A stretch of 29,459 bases of DNA from Candidatus Methanophagales archaeon (GTDB taxonomy: Archaea > Halobacteriota > Syntropharchaeia > Alkanophagales > Methanospirareceae). Each line of letters opens with the position of its first letter. The first letter of the stretch is position 1. A model generated the notes under the pieces. The model was not told where the DNA came from, did no database searches, and saw only the letters and a list, made by a program, of their open reading frames with translations. Location of the stretch: contig PIXU01000001.1 of the NCBI GenBank assembly GCA_003601795.1, positions 1-29,459 of the forward strand, written 5' to 3'. This document shows, one piece after another, positions 2,945 through 11,675 of the stretch. Made by a program: the position numbers and the translations under genes.

Positions 2945-4249
2945 TCACCTCCACGTCTTCACATTAGAAACAATTACAAAACCTTCTTCCGAATCGTTAA
3001 CCGCTTTTTCCAGAGCCGAATCCAAATCATCAGAAAAAAACACGTTCTCACCTTCTATTTTGTCTCTGAACTCCTCACCCACAATTATTATCTCAACGAA
3101 ATCCGACGCTACATTCTTAACTATCTGTTTCACTTCCTCCAAGTCCACCCCTTCACACACATATTGGGACTCCTCCCCAACAATCAAAATCATCTTCTCC
3201 GAATACTGCCTTGCCATCCTCGTTATCTCATCAAGGAACTTCAATTTTGTGCCTGAATTGGAATTATCAATCAAGAACCGCCCTTTCAGCTTCTCCAGTT
3301 TCATCCTACCCTTTACTGCTGAGATATTAGTATTGACTTCTTCTGGTGGAATGCCAAGGCTCAAAACGGCGCAAAACGCCGCTTCCAGAGAATTCCTGTA
3401 ATATTCCCCGCCAAACAAATCAAAAGATTTGAATGCGATTTCGCCACTTATAGAATCACCGGTTATGGTTCTCAGTCGGTTAAAAATGACTTTGTTTTCC
3501 CTTTTACTTATCCAGAGGCTGTTATCTTTATTACCAAAGGTATTCGCTACCACTTCTTCATCTGTTCTTAATGAGCCTGGATGAACTATTATACTCCCGT
3601 GTTTGCTTTCATAGTTCTTCATTGATCCTCTTTTTACCACAGAAGCATCTTTTGTGCCTCCAGCAATCCTGTAATCTGCTTTCAAGCTCGTTATTACCCC
3701 TACATTGCCTGCTCCTGTTAAACCGAGTGAGACTTCAAATACCGCTATATTTGGCTTCAAATTCTTTTCTCGCGCTATCTCCATCACTTTCAACATGTTC
3801 GCAGGCGTGCTGCCTATCCTGGGAAATAGTACTCCTTTTTCTACCGATTTAAACCTCGTGGAGGAGCTGGTATGCGAAAGAACCTCAAATTTTTCCTTGT
3901 TCAACAACTGGCAGATTAGCTCGCAAACTGCGGTCTTTCCAACCGTACCTGTTACTTCCACTACTTTTATACCAGCGAAAAGATTTTTTAGAGCCGCAAT
4001 CTCTTTTACCGCTTCGTGATGATTCACAATGGGTATCTCCATCTTTAAAGTTTGCCTTACAACCTCAAAGTTCGGATTCAGATGAACCGGTGCGATAACA
4101 AGGTCGTAATCCAACGCTTTAGAAAAGGTTTGATGGTATGGGTCGAAGACCTCTACTTGTTTCTCAAGTTCTTTTAGCTCTTCTGCAATGACTTCTGCCC
4201 CGTGAATGGGGTCTAAAACCAATATCTTGCATGCTTCTTTTATGCTCAT
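2945..4249 (-). CDS. cfbE: Coenzyme F430 synthase (Mur-ligase-like)
   Basis: N-terminal LVLDPIHG, P-loop EVTGTVGKT, FEVSLG and C-terminal GRM...IDNSNSG, as in CfbE. Methanogenesis-pathway context. Confidence 0.85.
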   Translation of the reverse strand: MSIKEACKILVLDPIHGAEVIAEELKELEKQVEVFDPYHQTFSKALDYDLVIAPVHLNPNFEVVRQTLKMEIPIVNHHEAVKEIAALKNLFAGIKVVEVTGTVGKTAVCELICQLLNKEKFEVLSHTSSSTRFKSVEKGVLFPRIGSTPANMLKVMEIAREKNLKPNIAVFEVSLGLTGAGNVGVITSLKADYRIAGGTKDASVVKRGSMKNYESKHGSIIVHPGSLRTDEEVVANTFGNKDNSLWISKRENKVIFNRLRTITGDSISGEIAFKSFDLFGGEYYRNSLEAAFCAVLSLGIPPEEVNTNISAVKGRMKLEKLKGRFLIDNSNSGTKLKFLDEITRMARQYSEKMILIVGEESQYVCEGVDLEEVKQIVKNVASDFVEIIIVGEEFRDKIEGENVFFSDDLDSALEKAVNDSEEGFVIVSNVKTWR

Positions 4250-4294: not shown

Positions 4295-4378
4295 TGCGGG
4301 GGGCGTGATTTGAACACGCGGACTCCTTCGAGACAGGGTCCTAAGCCCTGCGCCTTTTCCTAACTCAGCAACCCCCGC
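4295..4378 (-). tRNA. trnL: tRNA-Leu (anticodon UAG), no intron, CCA not encoded
   Basis: Reverse complement folds as: acceptor GCGGGGG/CCCCCGC plus discriminator A; anticodon arm CAGGG-CT-TAG-GA-CCCTG; long variable arm; T arm GCGTG-TTCAAAT-CACGC. Confidence 0.96.
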
Positions 4379-4824
4379 TTCTCTTTTCTCTCCACTCTTA
4401 TTCCTTCTATCCACGTATGCGGGTAATTTCCCGTTTCGTCCTTCTCTTCCGATTTCACCATGTCCCAAATCGTTAACAGAGCCACAGATAGACCATGCAG
4501 TGCATCCATCTCTACGCCCGTCTTTCCAACGGACTTCACAGATACTGTCGCTTTTATATCCTCCTCACACATCGAAAAATCAACTTTTACCGCTTCAATG
4601 CTTATTGGATGGCATAGCGGGATCATATCAGGGGTTTTTTTCACAGCCAATATCGCTGCGGTTTCCGCGCATGCAAGCACGTCCCCTTTCTTTATATTCC
4701 CCCTTCTTATCTTCTCAATAGTGCTATTTTTCAATTTTATGCTGCCAGAAGCCACTGCTATTCGCTCAACATTCTCTTTTTTGCTTATGTCCACCATGAC
4801 CACGCTCACGTCGTGCCGATGCAT
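4360..4824 (-). CDS. moaC: Cyclic pyranopterin monophosphate synthase (true start may be the ATG at 4797)
   Basis: MVDISKK...[41 protein letters not shown] and LTIWDMVKS are MoaC signatures. Confidence 0.95.
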
Positions 4825-4833
4825 TGTTTCTCT

Positions 4834-5049
4834 TCAAGCTGGCCAGACACCGAAATATATCTCCAACCCTAACACCACGACACCTATAAAGACGCCGAGA
4901 AGTAGTATCGTTTTCGGTGATAGCTTAACCGCAGACTCCTCTACATCGTAATACCGCATCAATCCCGCAGAGGACATAAGTCCACGTTCTTCGCCTCTTC
5001 CTCTTCCTCCTTCCCTCTTAGCTTTTTTCGTTGCTCTTTTTTTTGCCAT
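4834..5049 (-). CDS. sec61beta: Preprotein translocase subunit Sec61beta
   Basis: Basic N-terminus, GLMSSAGLMRYYD motif, single TM helix after KLSPK. Confidence 0.9.
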   Translation of the reverse strand: MAKKRATKKAKREGGRGRGEERGLMSSAGLMRYYDVEESAVKLSPKTILLLGVFIGVVVLGLEIYFGVWPA

Positions 5050-5120
5050 AATTGATTTTATGATTTTTATTTATATTCAATTCAAAACTGGAATATAAAA
5101 AAACGATTCATGAGTCAGAG

Positions 5121-5243
5121 ATGACGAGATATGATGCAATAAAAGCAGTAGCGGAATTTCTGGATGAAGAGGCTGTTGTTTCCAATATTGGCGAACCAAG
5201 TAAGGAATTGTATGAGATTAGAAATAGAGATCTAAACTTCTAG
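5121..5243 (+). pseudogene. comE: Remnant of sulfopyruvate decarboxylase beta subunit/domain (ComE; coenzyme M biosynthesis)
   Basis: Translates MTRYDAIKAVAEFLDEEAVVSNIGEPSKELYEIRNRDLNF*. This matches the ComE N-terminus (VVSNIG.PSKEL...DR..NF) but stops just before YMLGSMG. The frame is also open upstream (KLEYKKTIHESE), possibly the linker of a fused ComDE. Not in the ORF track. Confidence 0.75.
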
Positions 5244-5565
5244 CGCGCAACTATCGAGGGTTTGTATGACAATAAAGACCGAGAGTCATTCATGTAATAG
5301 TGAAAACGGGAAGTGCAGGAATGAAGAACATAAAATTGACATCATGGCAAATAAAGAGAAGATTTATGAAGGCTATACTTTAGCGATACTCTCCTATCTC
5401 GCATAGTATAGAATTATCTCTTATTCATATTTTGCTTGTCGTTTATTATACAATAAGACAATCTAATAGACAAAAATAGAAAAATTTAAATACTTGCAAG
5501 TAGAAAAGAATATTTATGTATATAAAAACGCATGATAGTATAGAAGAAATTAGGAGGTGATTAGT

Positions 5566-6597
5566 ATGAAAAAGAGAACCGCAATTATAGGGGGAATAAT
5601 GGCTGTAGGAATAATTGCAGTAGTGGTTTTTGGAATTGGATGCATAGAAGAAAAAGCTCCAGCAGAGATGACTACACTCAACATTGGCTATCAACCAAGC
5701 ACGCATCAAATCGCAGCGATGTTAGCATCCGAGAAGGGATGGTGGGAAGAGGATCTGGCGCAATTTGGTATAGAAAAAATTACAATGAAGGAATTCCCTT
5801 CAGGACCGCCAGAGATGCATGCAATGCTTGCTGGAGACCTTGACGTAGCGTATGTAGGAGTTGCGCCACCTATTGCGGCGATATACGAAGGTTTAGATGC
5901 AAAGATAGTTGCAGGCGTCCAGACTCAGGGGTCCGCGATAGTTATCCGCCCAGAGCTCGCGGATGAATACGAGGGGCCTCTTTCTTTAAAGGGCAAGTCG
6001 ATAGCCACCTTTCCAGCAGGGTCGATTCAGCATACAATCCTTTCGAAATGGCTTTTAGATAACGGAATAGACCCGACTGAGGACGTAGATATAAAAGCAA
6101 TGGGACCGAGCGATGCTGCTACTGCTATTGGAGCTAAAACCGTGGATGCTGTCTTTCTCCCCAGTCCGACACCTACAATAATCGTAGAGGAAGGGAATGG
6201 AGTAATTGTTGAATGGTCGGGTTCAATGTGGCCAGACCATGCATGCTGCTGCTTGGCTGCGAGTGGAAAAATGATTAGGGAACACCCAGAGATGCTTAAA
6301 CAGATAATAAAAACGCATATACGTGCCACAGAGTACGAGATCGAGCATCCCGAAGAAGCGGCAGAGATTTATGCAAAGTGGGAAAATGCAAATGTATCAA
6401 CGATAAAGCACTCAATAGACGCAACGGATATGCACTGGATTCACGATCCACATCTTGAGGTAGAATCGGGTATCGAATACGCGCAAGTCATCTACAACCT
6501 AAACAAAGAGAGATATGAGGGAAAGGGTATTGAAATGCTTGAGGAAAAAGACATCTTTGATACCAGCTTTTATGACGAGGTAACGGGGGAAAAATGA
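5566..6597 (+). CDS. ABC transporter substrate-binding lipoprotein 1, SsuA/TauA/NMT1-like
   Basis: SD GGAGGTGA precedes the ATG at 5566. Signal peptide ends in a lipobox-like GIGC. Motifs IGYQPSTHQ, EFPSGPPEMHAMLAGDLDVAYVG, GKSIATFPAGSIQH. Confidence 0.9.
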   Translation: MKKRTAIIGGIMAVGIIAVVVFGIGCIEEKAPAEMTTLNIGYQPSTHQIAAMLASEKGWWEEDLAQFGIEKITMKEFPSGPPEMHAMLAGDLDVAYVGVAPPIAAIYEGLDAKIVAGVQTQGSAIVIRPELADEYEGPLSLKGKSIATFPAGSIQHTILSKWLLDNGIDPTEDVDIKAMGPSDAATAIGAKTVDAVFLPSPTPTIIVEEGNGVIVEWSGSMWPDHACCCLAASGKMIREHPEMLKQIIKTHIRATEYEIEHPEEAAEIYAKWENANVSTIKHSIDATDMHWIHDPHLEVESGIEYAQVIYNLNKERYEGKGIEMLEEKDIFDTSFYDEVTGEK

Positions 6598-7367
6598 GGC
6601 TGCCAGCGAAAGAAAAAGGGCTGTGGTCGGTTCCTCTAATCACAGTCCTTCTCCTCTGGGAGTTTACGGCGGGATACGTGATAAAAAATCCGTTAATGTT
6701 GCCACGCTTCTCCGCCGTTATTTTTTCCATTTATGCGCTTAGGAATGTTTTGATTGCTGATATGCTCATCAGCCTTCTTCACTTTGGTATAGGGCTGGCA
6801 TTGGCATTTGCCGTAGCACTTCCTCTGGCAATTGGTATGGGGTGGTCCAGGAACATATTCAAAGCTATTGACCCAATCATTGAAATTCTGAGGCCAATAC
6901 CCCCTCTCGCATGGATACCCATTGCAATGATCTGGTTCCATCTGACGCACTATGCCGCGGGGTTTATCATATTCATCGGTGCATTTTTCCCAATCTTAAT
7001 TGACAGCTATACCGGATTTCGCAATGTGCCAAAGGTGTTGGTAGAGACGGGTAAAGTGTTAGGATGCATAGGTAATAAAAAGCAGATAAAATATGTTGCT
7101 TTTCCCTATGCGCTTCCTTCTATTGCTACCGGCACTCGCATAGGAATGGGAATAGGATGGATGTGCGTAGTTGCAGCGGAAATGTTCGGAGTTAGTGATA
7201 GTGGACTTGGATATCGCCTATTCCAGAAATTTTACTTTCTACATCAGATGGATTACGTGGTAGCGTACATGCTTGTTTTAGGGCTGGTAGCACTATGCTT
7301 AGACCGCTTATTCAGATATTTTGTAGAGGATAAACTATTAAAATGGAAGAAAGGGATAGTGAAATGA
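6594..7367 (+). CDS. ABC transporter permease, SsuC/TauC-like
   Basis: Multiple TM helices, LRPIPPLAWIP, FFPILI, EAA-loop region, IGMGIGWMCVVAAEM. ATGA overlap with the upstream gene. Confidence 0.92.
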   Translation: MRLPAKEKGLWSVPLITVLLLWEFTAGYVIKNPLMLPRFSAVIFSIYALRNVLIADMLISLLHFGIGLALAFAVALPLAIGMGWSRNIFKAIDPIIEILRPIPPLAWIPIAMIWFHLTHYAAGFIIFIGAFFPILIDSYTGFRNVPKVLVETGKVLGCIGNKKQIKYVAFPYALPSIATGTRIGMGIGWMCVVAAEMFGVSDSGLGYRLFQKFYFLHQMDYVVAYMLVLGLVALCLDRLFRYFVEDKLLKWKKGIVK

Positions 7368-8533
7368 GAAATAAGGATATTACCAGGTTAAAAATTGGCT
7401 TACTCTGCAAAGGGCTAAAAGTGAATCCAAATGCGAGATATTATCCTGAGATAGTACCTGATGGATATGCTGGAGGCGGGAAATCAAGAGCGGGGGTTGC
7501 GGGAAGTGGTAAAGATTTCATTTTAGATTCTGGAGAATCCTGTAATATAGGCGTTTTACAACCATTCCTGGAAGAATCACCTTTTGAATTCAAGATAATA
7601 GATAGCGAGGGGTGGATACTAAAAGAGGGTAAAAAAGCTATTAGAGCTACGCTAAGGGAGCCGAAATGGCATTCTACCCACTTATTCAACGAGATACAAT
7701 TGCATGGAAAAGATTCTCTTGCAACTGCGTTATCGAATTTCTGTATTTATAAGCAACAAGGAGAAGACTGCAAGTTTTGCATAATTGACGTTGGTGGAGA
7801 GATAGTGATTCATGAACCGGAAGATATTGCAAGAGCAATACAGGAAATAGAAAAGACTTCAGAACTCAGGGCATGCTATAATATTGAAGATAAATACAAT
7901 CCAAACCTCACAGAGCAAGAGCTCGAAAAGAGGAAAAAATATGTGGAACCGAAGGATGTAAACATAAATTCGGGGACGCTGAAAGACGCAGTAAGAGATT
8001 ATAAAAAGACAATTTCTGCTATAAAAGCAGTTAGTGAACTCCCGATTGGTATACAAATTTGTCCAGTCGAACCCGATGAAATGGAAACTCTTTATTCTGC
8101 GGGTACTACGGAAATCAGCTTTAATTTAGAGGTTTATGATGAGCGTGCAAGAAAAGAAGTAATTCCGGGGAAAAATAGGGATAATTCGGCAGCGGATTAT
8201 TTAAAGGCTATGAGCGAAGCGGTAGGGATATTTGGAGATAATCAAGTGGAATCGTGGATATTGATAGGACTTGAACCAAAGGAGAAGACCATTGAAGGAA
8301 TCAAAGCGATAGCAGAAGCTGGTGCAATACCATTGCCAAAACCTTTCAGACCTTTGTATGGGGCAGATTATGAACGAAAGAGACCTCCTACTTTGGAAGA
8401 CGCTATTGTAGTCTATGAAGCATGGCTGGATATGATTAGAGATTATGGATTGAACCCATTAAAAACGAAAGCAGGTTGTGGCAGGTGTAACGGTTGTTTC
8501 CCATTACATGAGTTGTTGAAATATGGCATTTAG
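7364..8533 (+). CDS. Radical SAM protein with a CX8CX2C motif, MSMEG_0568-like
   Basis: LHGKDSLATALSNFCIYKQQGEDCKFCII (CX8CX2C), N-terminal SRAGVAGSG...ESPF, C-terminal AGCGRCNGC. ATGA overlap with the permease stop gives the start at 7364. Confidence 0.8.
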   Translation: MRNKDITRLKIGLLCKGLKVNPNARYYPEIVPDGYAGGGKSRAGVAGSGKDFILDSGESCNIGVLQPFLEESPFEFKIIDSEGWILKEGKKAIRATLREPKWHSTHLFNEIQLHGKDSLATALSNFCIYKQQGEDCKFCIIDVGGEIVIHEPEDIARAIQEIEKTSELRACYNIEDKYNPNLTEQELEKRKKYVEPKDVNINSGTLKDAVRDYKKTISAIKAVSELPIGIQICPVEPDEMETLYSAGTTEISFNLEVYDERARKEVIPGKNRDNSAADYLKAMSEAVGIFGDNQVESWILIGLEPKEKTIEGIKAIAEAGAIPLPKPFRPLYGADYERKRPPTLEDAIVVYEAWLDMIRDYGLNPLKTKAGCGRCNGCFPLHELLKYGI

Positions 8534-8556
8534 AAAAGTGATTGGAAAGAGGTAAC

Positions 8557-9576
8557 ATGAAAAAGATAGCAGTTATAGCAGTTGAGATAATAATTGCAGC
8601 AATAGTAATTACTATTGGAACTCATTTTTATCTTCTGGCTGCGCCTACAACGCTTACCATAGGATATCAGCCAATCAACCACCACACAGCAGCGATACTG
8701 GCATCCGAAAAAGGATGGTGGGAGCAGGACCTTGCGAAATTTGGCATAGAAAAAGTCGAAATGAAAGAGTTCCCTACCGGACCTTCAGAGATGCACGCAA
8801 TGCTTGCTGGGGATATTGAGGTGGCTTATGTAGGTATGGCACCACCAATTTCAGCTATGTATGAGGGTTTAGATGCAAAGTTAATTGCAGGTGTGGAGAC
8901 CCAGGGAGACGCATTAGTTGTTCGTTCGGATCTTGCTGATAAATATGAAGGACCCCATTCTTTAAAAGGTATGACAATAGCAACCTACCCACCTGGTTCG
9001 ATTCCGCATACAATCCTCTCAAAGTGGCTTTTGGATAATGGGATAGATCCGGAAAAGGATGTAGATATAAAAGCAATGGGACCGAGCGATGCTGTTACAG
9101 CTATGGGAAGTAAAGCAGTAGATGCTGCTTTTATCTGCACTCCGTATCCTTCAATGATCGAAGAGGCAGGATATGGGATAATTGTGACGGTGGGAGGCGA
9201 GATGTGGCAGCATCATGCGTGCTGCTGTTTAGTTGCAAGTGGCGAAACAATTAGGAAACATCCTGAGGTGGTTAAGCAAATAATCAAAACGCATATTCGC
9301 GCCACTGAGTACATAAATATGTATCCTGACGACGCAGCAGAAATTTTTGGGAAGCGGTACAATATAAATGTAAAAACGATAATGCACTCACTAAACGCAA
9401 CTGGTATGCGCTGGATTCACAACCCGCATGCAGAGATAGAGGACGGGCTCGAATATGCGAGGGTCATTTACGAGTTGAATAGGGAGAGATATGAAGAAAA
9501 GGGAATTGAAGTACTCGAAGAAAAGGATATTTTTGATACCAGCTTCTACGATGAAATAAGAAGTAAAAAAGATTAA
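8557..9576 (+). CDS. ABC transporter substrate-binding protein 2, paralog of 5566..6597
   Basis: GAGG precedes the ATG at 8557. N-terminal TM anchor without a lipobox Cys. Collinear and highly similar to binding protein 1. Confidence 0.9.
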   Translation: MKKIAVIAVEIIIAAIVITIGTHFYLLAAPTTLTIGYQPINHHTAAILASEKGWWEQDLAKFGIEKVEMKEFPTGPSEMHAMLAGDIEVAYVGMAPPISAMYEGLDAKLIAGVETQGDALVVRSDLADKYEGPHSLKGMTIATYPPGSIPHTILSKWLLDNGIDPEKDVDIKAMGPSDAVTAMGSKAVDAAFICTPYPSMIEEAGYGIIVTVGGEMWQHHACCCLVASGETIRKHPEVVKQIIKTHIRATEYINMYPDDAAEIFGKRYNINVKTIMHSLNATGMRWIHNPHAEIEDGLEYARVIYELNRERYEEKGIEVLEEKDIFDTSFYDEIRSKKD

Positions 9577-9577
9577 A

Positions 9578-10351
9578 ATGAACCACAAACTTGAAATTCG
9601 GAATCTAACGAAGACGTTTAACACAGAAGACGGTGAAATGATGGCATTGGAAGACATTAGTATAGTAGTCAAGCCAGCTGAATTTTTGTGTATTATAGGG
9701 CCTTCGGGATGTGGGAAAACAACGCTGCTGAGAATGATAGCGGGTTTAGACCACCCGAGCAGTGGAGGGATTATTTTAGATGGGAAAGAGGTGAAAGGAC
9801 CTTCTCCGGATAGGGGGATGGTATTCCAGGAATTTTCGTTATTCCCATGGAGAACGGTTTTGAAGAACGTAGAATTCGGATTGGAAATAAAAGGAATGAA
9901 AGAAAAAGCGCGGAGAGAGATTGCAGAGAGATATATAGAGCTTGTAGGGCTAAGAGGCTTTGAAAATTGTTATCCATACGAACTTTCTGGAGGTATGAAG
10001 CAACGGGTAGCGATTGCTCGCGCGCTTGCGACTGACCCTGCGATTTTATTGATGGATGAGCCTTTTGGATCGGTGGATGCACAAACGAGAAACATACTTC
10101 AGGAAGAGCTGCTGGAGATTTGGAAAAGGACAAAGAAAACTGTTCTGTTCGTAACGCACAGTGTTGACGAAGCGGTATATCTCGCTGATAGAGTTGCAGT
10201 GATGTCTGCGAGACCGGGTTGCCTTATTAAGTGCCTTGATATAGATATACCGCGACCGAGGAAGCGAACGAGTGTAGAAGCGAATGCGTTCAGAGAGCAG
10301 TTGCTCATGTTGCTCCGCTTAGAACGTTCAAAGGCGTGTATTTCGGTTTAA
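9578..10351 (+). CDS. ABC transporter ATPase, SsuB/TauB/NrtD-like
   Basis: Walker A GPSGCGKT, Q-loop VFQEFSLFPW, signature LSGGMKQR, Walker B LLMDEPF, H-loop FVTHSVDEA. Confidence 0.95.
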   Translation: MNHKLEIRNLTKTFNTEDGEMMALEDISIVVKPAEFLCIIGPSGCGKTTLLRMIAGLDHPSSGGIILDGKEVKGPSPDRGMVFQEFSLFPWRTVLKNVEFGLEIKGMKEKARREIAERYIELVGLRGFENCYPYELSGGMKQRVAIARALATDPAILLMDEPFGSVDAQTRNILQEELLEIWKRTKKTVLFVTHSVDEAVYLADRVAVMSARPGCLIKCLDIDIPRPRKRTSVEANAFREQLLMLLRLERSKACISV

Positions 10352-10403
10352 TCCAGCGACTCTTTACCACATTTTCTATCTCCTCCACTCGACTCAAAAC
10401 CTT

Positions 10404-10538
10404 AAGCTTCTTACCACGAACCGAGAAATATCGTGTCTCAGCATTCCATTTCTCTTCTATATACCGCAACGCTTCTTGAATTATCCAATCGGTAGCAGCT
10501 ATTCTTGGACTCCCAGAGATACCAAAAAGCTTAACCAT
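10404..10538 (-). pseudogene. N-terminal fragment of an iron-sulfur flavoprotein/flavodoxin-family protein
   Basis: MVKLFGISGSPRIAATD...EALRY...ETRYFSVRGKKL resembles Isf N-termini. Similarity ends before the expected CxxCxxC. The ORF then runs into the convergent ATPase gene (stop at 10305). Confidence 0.65.
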
Positions 10539-10712
10539 TTCTTTTCAACCAGCATCTCTTCAATGGATCAGAAGGATAACTTTTACTTACTTATGACTTT
10601 CCTTTCTTCGCTGTCATCCACATTTTTTCCAAAATTGTCCTTATTTTCTACCTTTCCCTCTTCTCAATACACTCTCACATACAAATCACCCGCAGCCTTT
10701 AATCACGGGCAT

Positions 10713-11675
10713 TCATAATGTCTCTAACCCAAAGGACTCCAGCAGCACCTCTGTATTTATCTTCCCACTGGTAAACGTTTTTCCGCTGTTCAGTTCGTTC
10801 ACCGTGATTTCCGCAGGTGCGAACATACCGGCATCTACTTTAAAGAAGTCGAAACCTGCTTCCTTAAATGTGACGTAGAACGGTTTTCCATAATCCCGTG
10901 AGTTCAACGAAGGCACTTTCTTCACGTATCCTTTCAATCCCTTCACGTCATCGTAATCCACCGCGTAATACACGCGACCACAGTAGATGATGCAATCGTT
11001 AGTAGAGCCCATGCATTTCACATCGTCACCAACCACAGGCGAGAGCGGTATAATGCCATGCGCATGTTTTATGCTGTTTATGTCGAATCCTAAAGAATCT
11101 AACTTGTGAATGCCAGTCTCAATACCTCTTGCTGATATTTGCACGGACCCGGCAATAGAGGCAGTTGGTACCACCACGATATAAAGGTCTTCGGGTTCCA
11201 CGCTGCACTCTTCCGCTATTTTCGTTGTCACTTCCTCATCAGGTATCTTGCTGCTTTCCAGTATTAACACCGCTTCATCTGCATCGTCTGCATATAATAT
11301 CTTATCATACAGCTCTCGTGGCTTACACGAAAGCGCCCTCGCCGGTCCCGATCCCATGCCGAAGTAATCCTTCACTTTTATCCGCCAGCCGGCGTATTGC
11401 GATGCCATGCAGGCGACTACGGGATGGTCAGTGGTAAGCTCTACGGCTGGCGCCACCAATTTGCCGAGGTCAAAGCTGCTGAATTTGATGTCCGCAAGGT
11501 CCGCCATGCATATCCTCGCTACGTACAAGCCCGCTTCAAATCCTCCTTCTTCTTCTACCCCTACATCTATTATCGTCGTTCCATTATCCAGCTCCTCTAT
11601 ACCCACTTGCAATTCCTCTGAGTTGTCCATCATTTCCTCGAATACGTCCAATCCATACTCATTCACGCTTATCAT
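10713..11675 (-). CDS. mch: Methenyltetrahydromethanopterin cyclohydrolase
   Basis: MISVNE..., TTIIDVGV...[62 protein letters not shown]. Confidence 0.97.

Follow-up and report, generated by a model that had tools for sequence, protein, structure and literature searches.

A decayed comDE gene beside an ssuABC-type importer points to probable coenzyme M auxotrophy in an ANME-1 archaeon

Introduction

Does an archaeon whose sulfopyruvate decarboxylase gene is broken still make coenzyme M (CoM), or does it live on cofactor taken up through the importer encoded next door? The question is raised by a locus of an ANME-1 (Methanophagales) archaeon, at which a short ComE-like reading frame ends in a stop codon shortly before the operon of a sulfonate-type ABC transporter. 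CoM is the cofactor of the methane-activating enzyme, and the sulfopyruvate decarboxylase step is common to both archaeal CoM routes. Much of the methane that rises in marine sediments is consumed by ANME-1 archaea, none of which, to our knowledge, has been grown in pure culture. The initial annotation of this DNA had proposed that the locus was a cluster for CoM synthesis and uptake, from which synthesis was lost and salvage remained. Here, the remnants of the gene, the rest of the CoM pathway, the importer and the corresponding loci of relatives were compared.

Sample and layout of the locus

The window, that is, the whole stretch of 29,459 nucleotides that was analysed, belongs to an ANME-1 metagenome-assembled genome (MAG), of which it is the longest contig (C1). 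This MAG comprises 310 contigs with 1.93 Mb in total, at a completeness of 75% and a contamination of 4%, figures that bound all genome-wide absences given below. A second ssu locus, 96% identical to that of the relative G001, lies on contig C175 and a second moaC/sec61beta copy on contig C96, and the bin therefore contains some strain mixing, such that genome-wide absence refers to a composite of strains. The features of the locus are as follows.

2945-4249, minus strand: cfbE
4295-4378, minus strand: tRNA-Leu
4360-4824, minus strand: moaC
4834-5049, minus strand: sec61beta (PF03911, E 6.6e-13; NF002318 above cut-off), bordering the former comDE site on the left
5079-5243, plus strand: comDE remnant region under study
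5088/5089, plus strand: junction of deletion A, 591 bp missing relative to locus L066
5089-5243, plus strand: N-terminal ComE remnant, consisting of 11 linker codons, a 40-codon ORF (5121-5240) and TAG (5241-5243)
5242/5243, plus strand: junction of deletion B, 288 bp missing relative to L066
5244-5383, plus strand: C-terminal ComE remnant in two frames, 5244-5276 and then 5279-5380 plus the original stop
5441-5548, plus strand: candidate conserved promoter/operator element upstream of ssuA1
5566-6597, plus strand: ssuA1, substrate-binding protein of 343 aa (TIGR01728 SsuA_fam, 189.3 bits; PF13379)
6594-7367, plus strand: ssuC, permease of 257 aa (PF00528; TauC/SsuC/SaoP-like), 93% identical to that of the relative G004
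7343-8533, plus strand: radical SAM gene, 396 aa (NF045502 variant_rSAM, 145 bits, cut-off 125)
8542-9576, plus strand: ssuA2, substrate-binding protein of 344 aa (TIGR01728, 177.5 bits)
9578-10351, plus strand: ssuB, ATPase of 257 aa (PF00005, E 1.1e-32)
10713-11675, minus strand: mch

The surroundings also differ among relatives. Upstream of cfbE, a PLD-family nuclease with a lamin-tail domain (1068-2888) is present in the haplotype with the broken gene and RadC in the haplotype with the intact gene (L144-L146), and comparison of positions 1-2944 with the latter places a second rearrangement boundary at about 2945. On the other side, about 1 kb between ssuB and mch of L066 (10738-11734) is missing in the window (10352-10712). 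Upstream of the second ssu locus of the MAG (C175 1-410) there is no comE; the left end of this contig enters a repeat common to the ends of C171 and C118, which encodes a short ORF that is helix-turn-helix-like by its sequence and may be an insertion element.

Identity of the ComE remnants

The 40-residue ORF at 5121-5243 on the plus strand, which ends in TAG, matches positions 1-38 of the 182 positions of the NCBIfam profile TIGR03846 (sulfopyruvate decarboxylase subunit beta) with an E-value of 2.3e-11; its score of 44 bits is below the full-length cut-off of 221.5, and a Pfam search of the ORF gave no match. The ComE homology begins at 5089, i.e., 11 codons before the ATG of the ORF. The N-terminal remnant aligns with residues 186-236 of the intact ComDE of G004 at 80% amino acid identity, and at the DNA level 5089-5242 shares 96.8% identity with the unbroken comDE of L066. 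Judged by these comparisons, the match of 5089-5242 to comDE is far beyond chance. The ComE-like fragment of 40 codons with its TAG, as described in the initial annotation, was thus borne out by both the profile and the ComDE proteins of relatives, and the transporter operon placed there about 320 nt downstream on the same strand starts at 5566, 323 nt after the TAG. The description held for the N-terminal fragment and was incomplete beyond it, since a second remnant at 5244-5383 had been missed. In a whole-genome HMM scan, 5264-5377 matches positions 144-181 of TIGR03846 with stops inside (E 2.1e-4, 21.5 bits), and tblastn against ComDE aligns 5244-5276 and, in another frame, 5279-5380 to residues 334-344 and 346-383, respectively.

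Of the ComE half, both ends survive, with about 51 codons at the N-terminal end and 45 at the C-terminal end, and the middle is absent. The 288 bp coding for the core positions 39-143 of TIGR03846, which we take, as in TPP enzymes generally, to be the site of the thiamine-diphosphate-binding segment, are not present at the locus; in L066 the missing ComE stretch runs from YMLGS through the DGDGS motif. The alpha (ComD) profile TIGR03845 has no match anywhere in the whole MAG, and the ComD half of the gene falls inside deletion A. The remnants occupy the orthologous position between sec61beta and ssuA, where intact comDE is found in L066, L144-L146 and other relatives. They descend from the family of fused ComDE proteins that combine TIGR03845 and TIGR03846, such as MA3298 of Methanosarcina acetivorans. 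At the same site in relatives, the fused protein has 377-398 aa, with 381-398 aa in members of the same genus, and scores 204.6 bits for alpha and 223.9 bits for beta, both above cut-off, whereas the copy in the window lacks the ComD half and the ComE core and carries a stop and a frameshift. With the junctions mapped as described below, it is virtually certain that the fragment is a true comDE pseudogene.

Disruption of comDE

The closest relative locus is L066 (QMVO01000008, isolate B64_G16), which is 98.8% identical over cfbE-tRNA-moaC-sec61beta and carries an intact fused comDE with its start 85 bp from sec61beta. Global alignment of the window with L066 was used to map the deletions. L066 6512-6534 aligns to window 5066-5088 and L066 7126-7279 to window 5089-5242, such that deletion A removes 41 bp upstream of the comDE start together with the first ~183 codons, i.e., the whole ComD half. 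Deletion B corresponds to L066 7280-7567 (96 codons, in frame) within the ComE core, and its junction joins TA to G to give the TAG stop. A further 1-bp deletion between 5276 and 5277 puts the ComE tail out of frame. No microhomology is found at either large junction in this alignment. Nucleotide identity to L066 is 96.8% in the N-terminal remnant and 91-93% in the C-terminal remnant as against 98.8-100% in the flanks, and the lower identity of the remnants fits relaxed constraint.

The ancestor, like L066, had comDE between sec61beta and the ssuABC operon. The ComD half and the ComE core were then lost in two clean deletions, the second junction creating the TAG, and the 1-bp deletion that shifts the frame of the ComE tail followed. 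No functional decarboxylase can come from the remaining comDE. Read-through of the TAG with pyrrolysine was considered and rejected, because the product would still lack the 96 core codons and the whole ComD half. Among 62 related loci, no other comDE pseudogene was found upstream of ssuA, the incomplete cases being just genes cut by contig ends. As a candidate for a second loss, G001 was likewise rejected: its comA/comB and comE pieces sit at contig edges, and its apparently broken comE on contig C116 is a distant paralog of 29-48% identity with an internal stop.

The remaining CoM pathway

The wider proposal that CoM synthesis has been lost depends on the rest of the genome. The search suggested along with the initial annotation, for intact comDE and cysteate synthase elsewhere, retrieved neither in the 75%-complete MAG: no ComD or intact ComE is present as assembled, and the only match to cysteate synthase is ThrC. 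Within the same 75%, there is no ortholog of ComA, ComB or MMP16 and no Ldh_2-type ComC; the sole COG1900 match is a paralog of ~520 aa that is present in every relative. From these absences, the lineage probably lacks the rest of the pathway. As a separate observation, an Ldh_2-type ComC and a cysteate synthase are both absent from the ANME-1 genomes with ComA and ComB (G004 and G041). In a published survey table, ANME-1 MAGs with mcrABG and no CoM genes are listed, and one QEXZ01 MAG is scored only for 'comE' (PMC12068725 Table S1); CoM biosynthesis genes are not mentioned by Chadwick et al. 2022 (PMC9012536).

The strongest rival to loss of synthesis is that comDE is dead and CoM is still made, with MMP16-comAB and either another comDE copy or an unrelated decarboxylase residing in the unassembled 25% and the remnant representing a decayed redundant copy. 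The incompleteness of the MAG leaves room for this, and one ANME-1 relative (G015) does have two ComE-like loci. Moreover, G041, the nearest relative, encodes ComDE and, on a different contig, MMP16-ComA-ComB, and the latter segment (G041:C19 1-6593) has no near-identical counterpart in the assembly of the window; contig C244 simply ends at the position matching G041:C19 6593, 3.9 kb from comB and without a repeat, where a gap and a deletion are indistinguishable. Against this rival, same-genus genomes with comDE have the gene at the ssu-linked site only, the sole extra ComE-like locus being the distant, internally stopped one of G001 (C116). Six functionally linked genes are missing together with their copy of the promoter element described below, and the scores of the other TPP enzymes of the MAG (~580-610 aa) do not exceed those of their counterparts in ComDE-bearing relatives. 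Continued synthesis by such a route is consequently regarded as unlikely. A comE mutant of Methanococcus maripaludis is reported to have kept <3% of CoM synthesis (PMC3787637), and some leak may therefore be possible.

The importer and its linkage to com genes

A binding protein, a BPD-type permease (PF00528) and an ABC ATPase (PF00005) are encoded in one operon, all of them open, and both SsuA proteins score above the TIGR01728 cut-off of 163.5. SsuA1 is 57% identical by tblastn to the single ortholog of M. acetivorans and 53-54% identical by blastp of the full ORFs, and SsuA2 is 68-70% identical to SsuA1 and 49% to M. acetivorans SsuA. One clear SsuA ortholog of 50-59% identity was found in all 106 of the 106 Methanosarcinaceae genomes searched (the copy of G139 being split in two fragments), and their other SsuA homologs are below about 32% identity. 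In G111 (5,751,492 bp), taken as M. acetivorans, the one ssuA match at 73716-74699 agrees with the published coordinates of the ssuA/ssuC/ssuB deletion, 72032-74051 (PMC10750270). The closest solved SsuA structures, namely Xanthomonas SsuA, E. coli SsuA, NrtA and CmpA, are only distant relatives.

The function of SsuABC in CoM uptake is taken from the literature. SsuABC of M. acetivorans is named as the CoM-specific ABC transporter, its ssuA and ssuC are induced under CoM starvation along with cs-comDE and hdrABC, and deletion of comDE yields a true CoM auxotroph that is rescued by 1 uM CoM (PMC12068725); in a review, ssuABC are named as CoM transporter genes in almost all methanogens (PMC10658910). 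The operon of the window resembles that of M. acetivorans (72.0-74.7 kb) in being the single-copy ortholog with the same order ssuA-ssuC-ssuB, and differs from it in the radical SAM gene and second binding protein inserted between ssuC and ssuB. The ANME-1 operon also lies directly downstream of comDE, whereas the ssu genes and cs-comDE of M. acetivorans are treated as separate clusters (PMC12068725), and the ANME-1 importer is known from sequence alone, whereas ssuABC of M. acetivorans has been studied genetically. By analogy with the Methanosarcina transporter, SsuA1 and SsuA2 would bind CoM.

Linkage of the importer to com genes, a point that the initial annotation had left to be checked in relatives, was found both in ANME-1 genera and in Methanotrichaceae. 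The gene order is MMP16-comA-comB-comDE-ssuA-ssuC-rSAM-ssuA2-ssuB in G004, where all CoM genes score above curated cut-offs, and MMP16-comA-comB-comDE-ssuA-ssuC-ssuB in same-genus relatives. Overall, comDE directly precedes ssuA in genomes of the same genus and in eight or more other ANME-1 genera; Methanotrichaceae have unfused comD and comE, frequently accompanied by MMP16, adjoining or near ssuA.

A second rival accepts the importer and changes its cargo: another sulfonate (isethionate, taurine, sulfolactate or cysteate) may be taken up as a precursor or sulfur source, with the adjacency of comDE reflecting the feeding of the pathway. The TIGR01728 family spans many aliphatic sulfonates, and an imported ComDE precursor is conceivable in the many ANME-1 genera that lack ComA. 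More than one ligand is also hinted at by the two old ssuA-ssuC types described below and by the diverged ssuA2, and in Rhodobacter the anaerobic assimilation of isethionate involves a radical SAM enzyme encoded beside ssuCAB (PMC11423573). However, an organism without ComDE and apparently without MMP16 could make no use of precursors upstream of sulfoacetaldehyde, and still its operon remains intact; CoM transport, with a response to CoM starvation, has been reported for the M. acetivorans ortholog; and of the ~60 closest relatives retrieved for the binding protein, nearly all either have titles naming ANME-1, ANME-2c, Methanothrix or Methanolliviera or cluster with these CoM-using archaea. 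Import of a different sulfonate is thus improbable, and uptake of CoM itself or a close derivative is preferred.

Deleted and intact haplotypes

The exact 40-residue ORF is present in three other assemblies (JGI 3300005098, ENA ERZ27248305 and ENA ERZ27248288). Each of these contigs has sec61beta followed by the 40-aa ORF and a 46-aa ORF, with ssuA next in the two longer ones, and the three share both junctions and differ from the window by 4, 40 and 4 substitutions. The intact haplotype, cfbE-moaC-sec61beta-comDE-ssuA'-ssuC'-ssuB, was found in three further assemblies (L144-L146). Since the deleted and intact haplotypes each occur in several assemblies, both alleles exist in nature, and the deleted allele is old enough for microdiversity. 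Although several closely related ANME-1 strains live in the community and some loci are duplicated in the bin, an artefact of assembly or binning such as a chimeric strain join is scarcely credible and was rejected, because both junctions recur in one JGI and two ENA MEGAHIT-style assemblies, three independent assemblies that differ by point substitutions, the junctions share no repeat or k-mer-length identity able to mislead an assembler, and the frameshift and raised divergence of the remnants fit real decay.

The five operon genes are open, with dN/dS of 0.09-0.17 relative to G004. Among the deletion carriers, ssuA1 and ssuC differ by 8 synonymous and 6 non-synonymous changes as against a neutral expectation of 1:3 (p about 0.01, a rough binomial estimate). 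Judged from these substitution patterns, the importer is maintained in the deletion carriers.

Operon variants

The ssuA-ssuC allele type of the window is common to G004 and G60ANME1 (86-93% aa identity). L064-L067, including L066, carry a second, old type, with 58-64% and 54-56% aa identity for ssuA and ssuC, respectively, and 60-64% and 55% for L066 itself, although ssuB is ~91% identical; ssuB is about 90% identical to relatives of both types. Because ssuA-ssuC are diverged and ssuB is not, the part coding for the binding protein and permease appears to have been exchanged by recombination in the haplotype of the window. The two allele types thus suggest cassette exchange and possibly reflect different ligands. 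M. acetivorans SsuA sides clearly with neither type, being 53-54% identical to type A as against 56-58% to type B. The insertion of the radical SAM gene (NF045502/TIGR04043-like) with ssuA2 was seen only in the window, G004 and G020 among the loci examined, and a search of the PDB for a relative of the radical SAM protein found none. Since G004 has the same cassette with intact comDE, the cassette is not tied to comDE loss or auxotrophy.

A shared promoter element

Upstream of ssuA, an element of ~105 bp at 5441-5548 contains a BRE/TATA-like AAAATAGAAAAATTTAAATA core, with TTATACA and TGTATAA half-sites on either side of the TATA-like box. It was aligned (alignments A1 and A2) from 19 copies in 10 ANME-1 genomes, at loci including L063 2180-2282, L067 2919-3008 and L116-L139. 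In these 10 genomes the element is also found ahead of the CoM-synthesis operon, whose first gene codes for an HdrC/HdrB-like fusion, a CysH-like protein or MMP16. In the MAG of the window, nhmmer retrieves just two full copies, both upstream of ssuA, and the MAG holds no ortholog of the hdrCB-like or cysH-like operon leader. No Rfam family corresponds to 5441-5548, and a search for known RNA families across 4900-5700 gave a chance-level match to sroH only (E 0.71).

The operon leaders merit description of their own. In some genera, the ANME-1 MMP16-comAB operon opens with a gene for an HdrC/HdrB-like fusion protein (~480-540 aa), and in others with one for a CysH-like protein of the PAPS-reductase family (~260 aa); such leaders lie at 2252-3883 in L063 and at L119, L121, L125 and L126. 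We know of no role in CoM synthesis for either protein. The presence of the element before both ssuA and CoM-synthesis operons parallels the CoM-starvation regulon of M. acetivorans, a likeness that may extend to CoM sensing, and the element is put forward as a candidate CoM-responsive operator.

Discussion

Taken together, the pseudogene, the absence of the other CoM genes from the MAG, the com-ssu linkage and the orthology of the importer to SsuABC make it probable that this lineage no longer makes CoM and salvages it through the adjacent importer, and the cluster-with-lost-synthesis reading of the initial annotation is supported as far as sequence evidence reaches. The organism would be a CoM auxotroph that imports CoM or a close CoM derivative via SsuA1/SsuA2-SsuC-SsuB, and the cofactor would be supplied by co-occurring CoM-producing archaea.

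Precedents for CoM auxotrophy combined with an SsuABC importer exist in rumen methanogens and in Methanosarcina genetics, and the present case adds a new lineage, an advance that is incremental rather than conceptual. The natural auxotrophs Methanobrevibacter ruminantium M1 and rumen Methanomassiliicoccales are MCR-dependent, lack comADE or MMP16 and need external CoM (PMC10658910, PMC12068725). These are gut methanogens whose loss was deduced from gene absence and growth tests, whereas the organism of the window is an uncultured marine methanotroph in which the loss is visible as a pseudogene whose deletion junctions could be mapped and alongside which an intact haplotype exists. A broader picture can be sketched tentatively, and we consider it somewhat less likely than its negation: a 'Black Queen' CoM economy among ANME-1, in which the comDE-deleted haplotype (0.1-0.9% microdiversity in three assemblies) might scavenge the CoM of prototrophic relatives, and in which uptake (ssuACB) and synthesis (hdrCB-like/cysH-like, then MMP16-comAB-comDE) might be co-regulated by the one operator at 5441-5548, which would be the cis-element of the CoM-starvation response known from Methanosarcina.

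If auxotrophy is real, the need for CoM would be a concrete and testable reason for the reliance of this lineage on neighbours, and the addition of CoM would be a hint for cultivation. The intact and deleted haplotypes would form a natural pair for studying the origin of a cofactor auxotrophy. Finally, the com-ssu linkage and the shared promoter element, the latter being the most novel lead, may offer a way into the regulation of CoM homeostasis.
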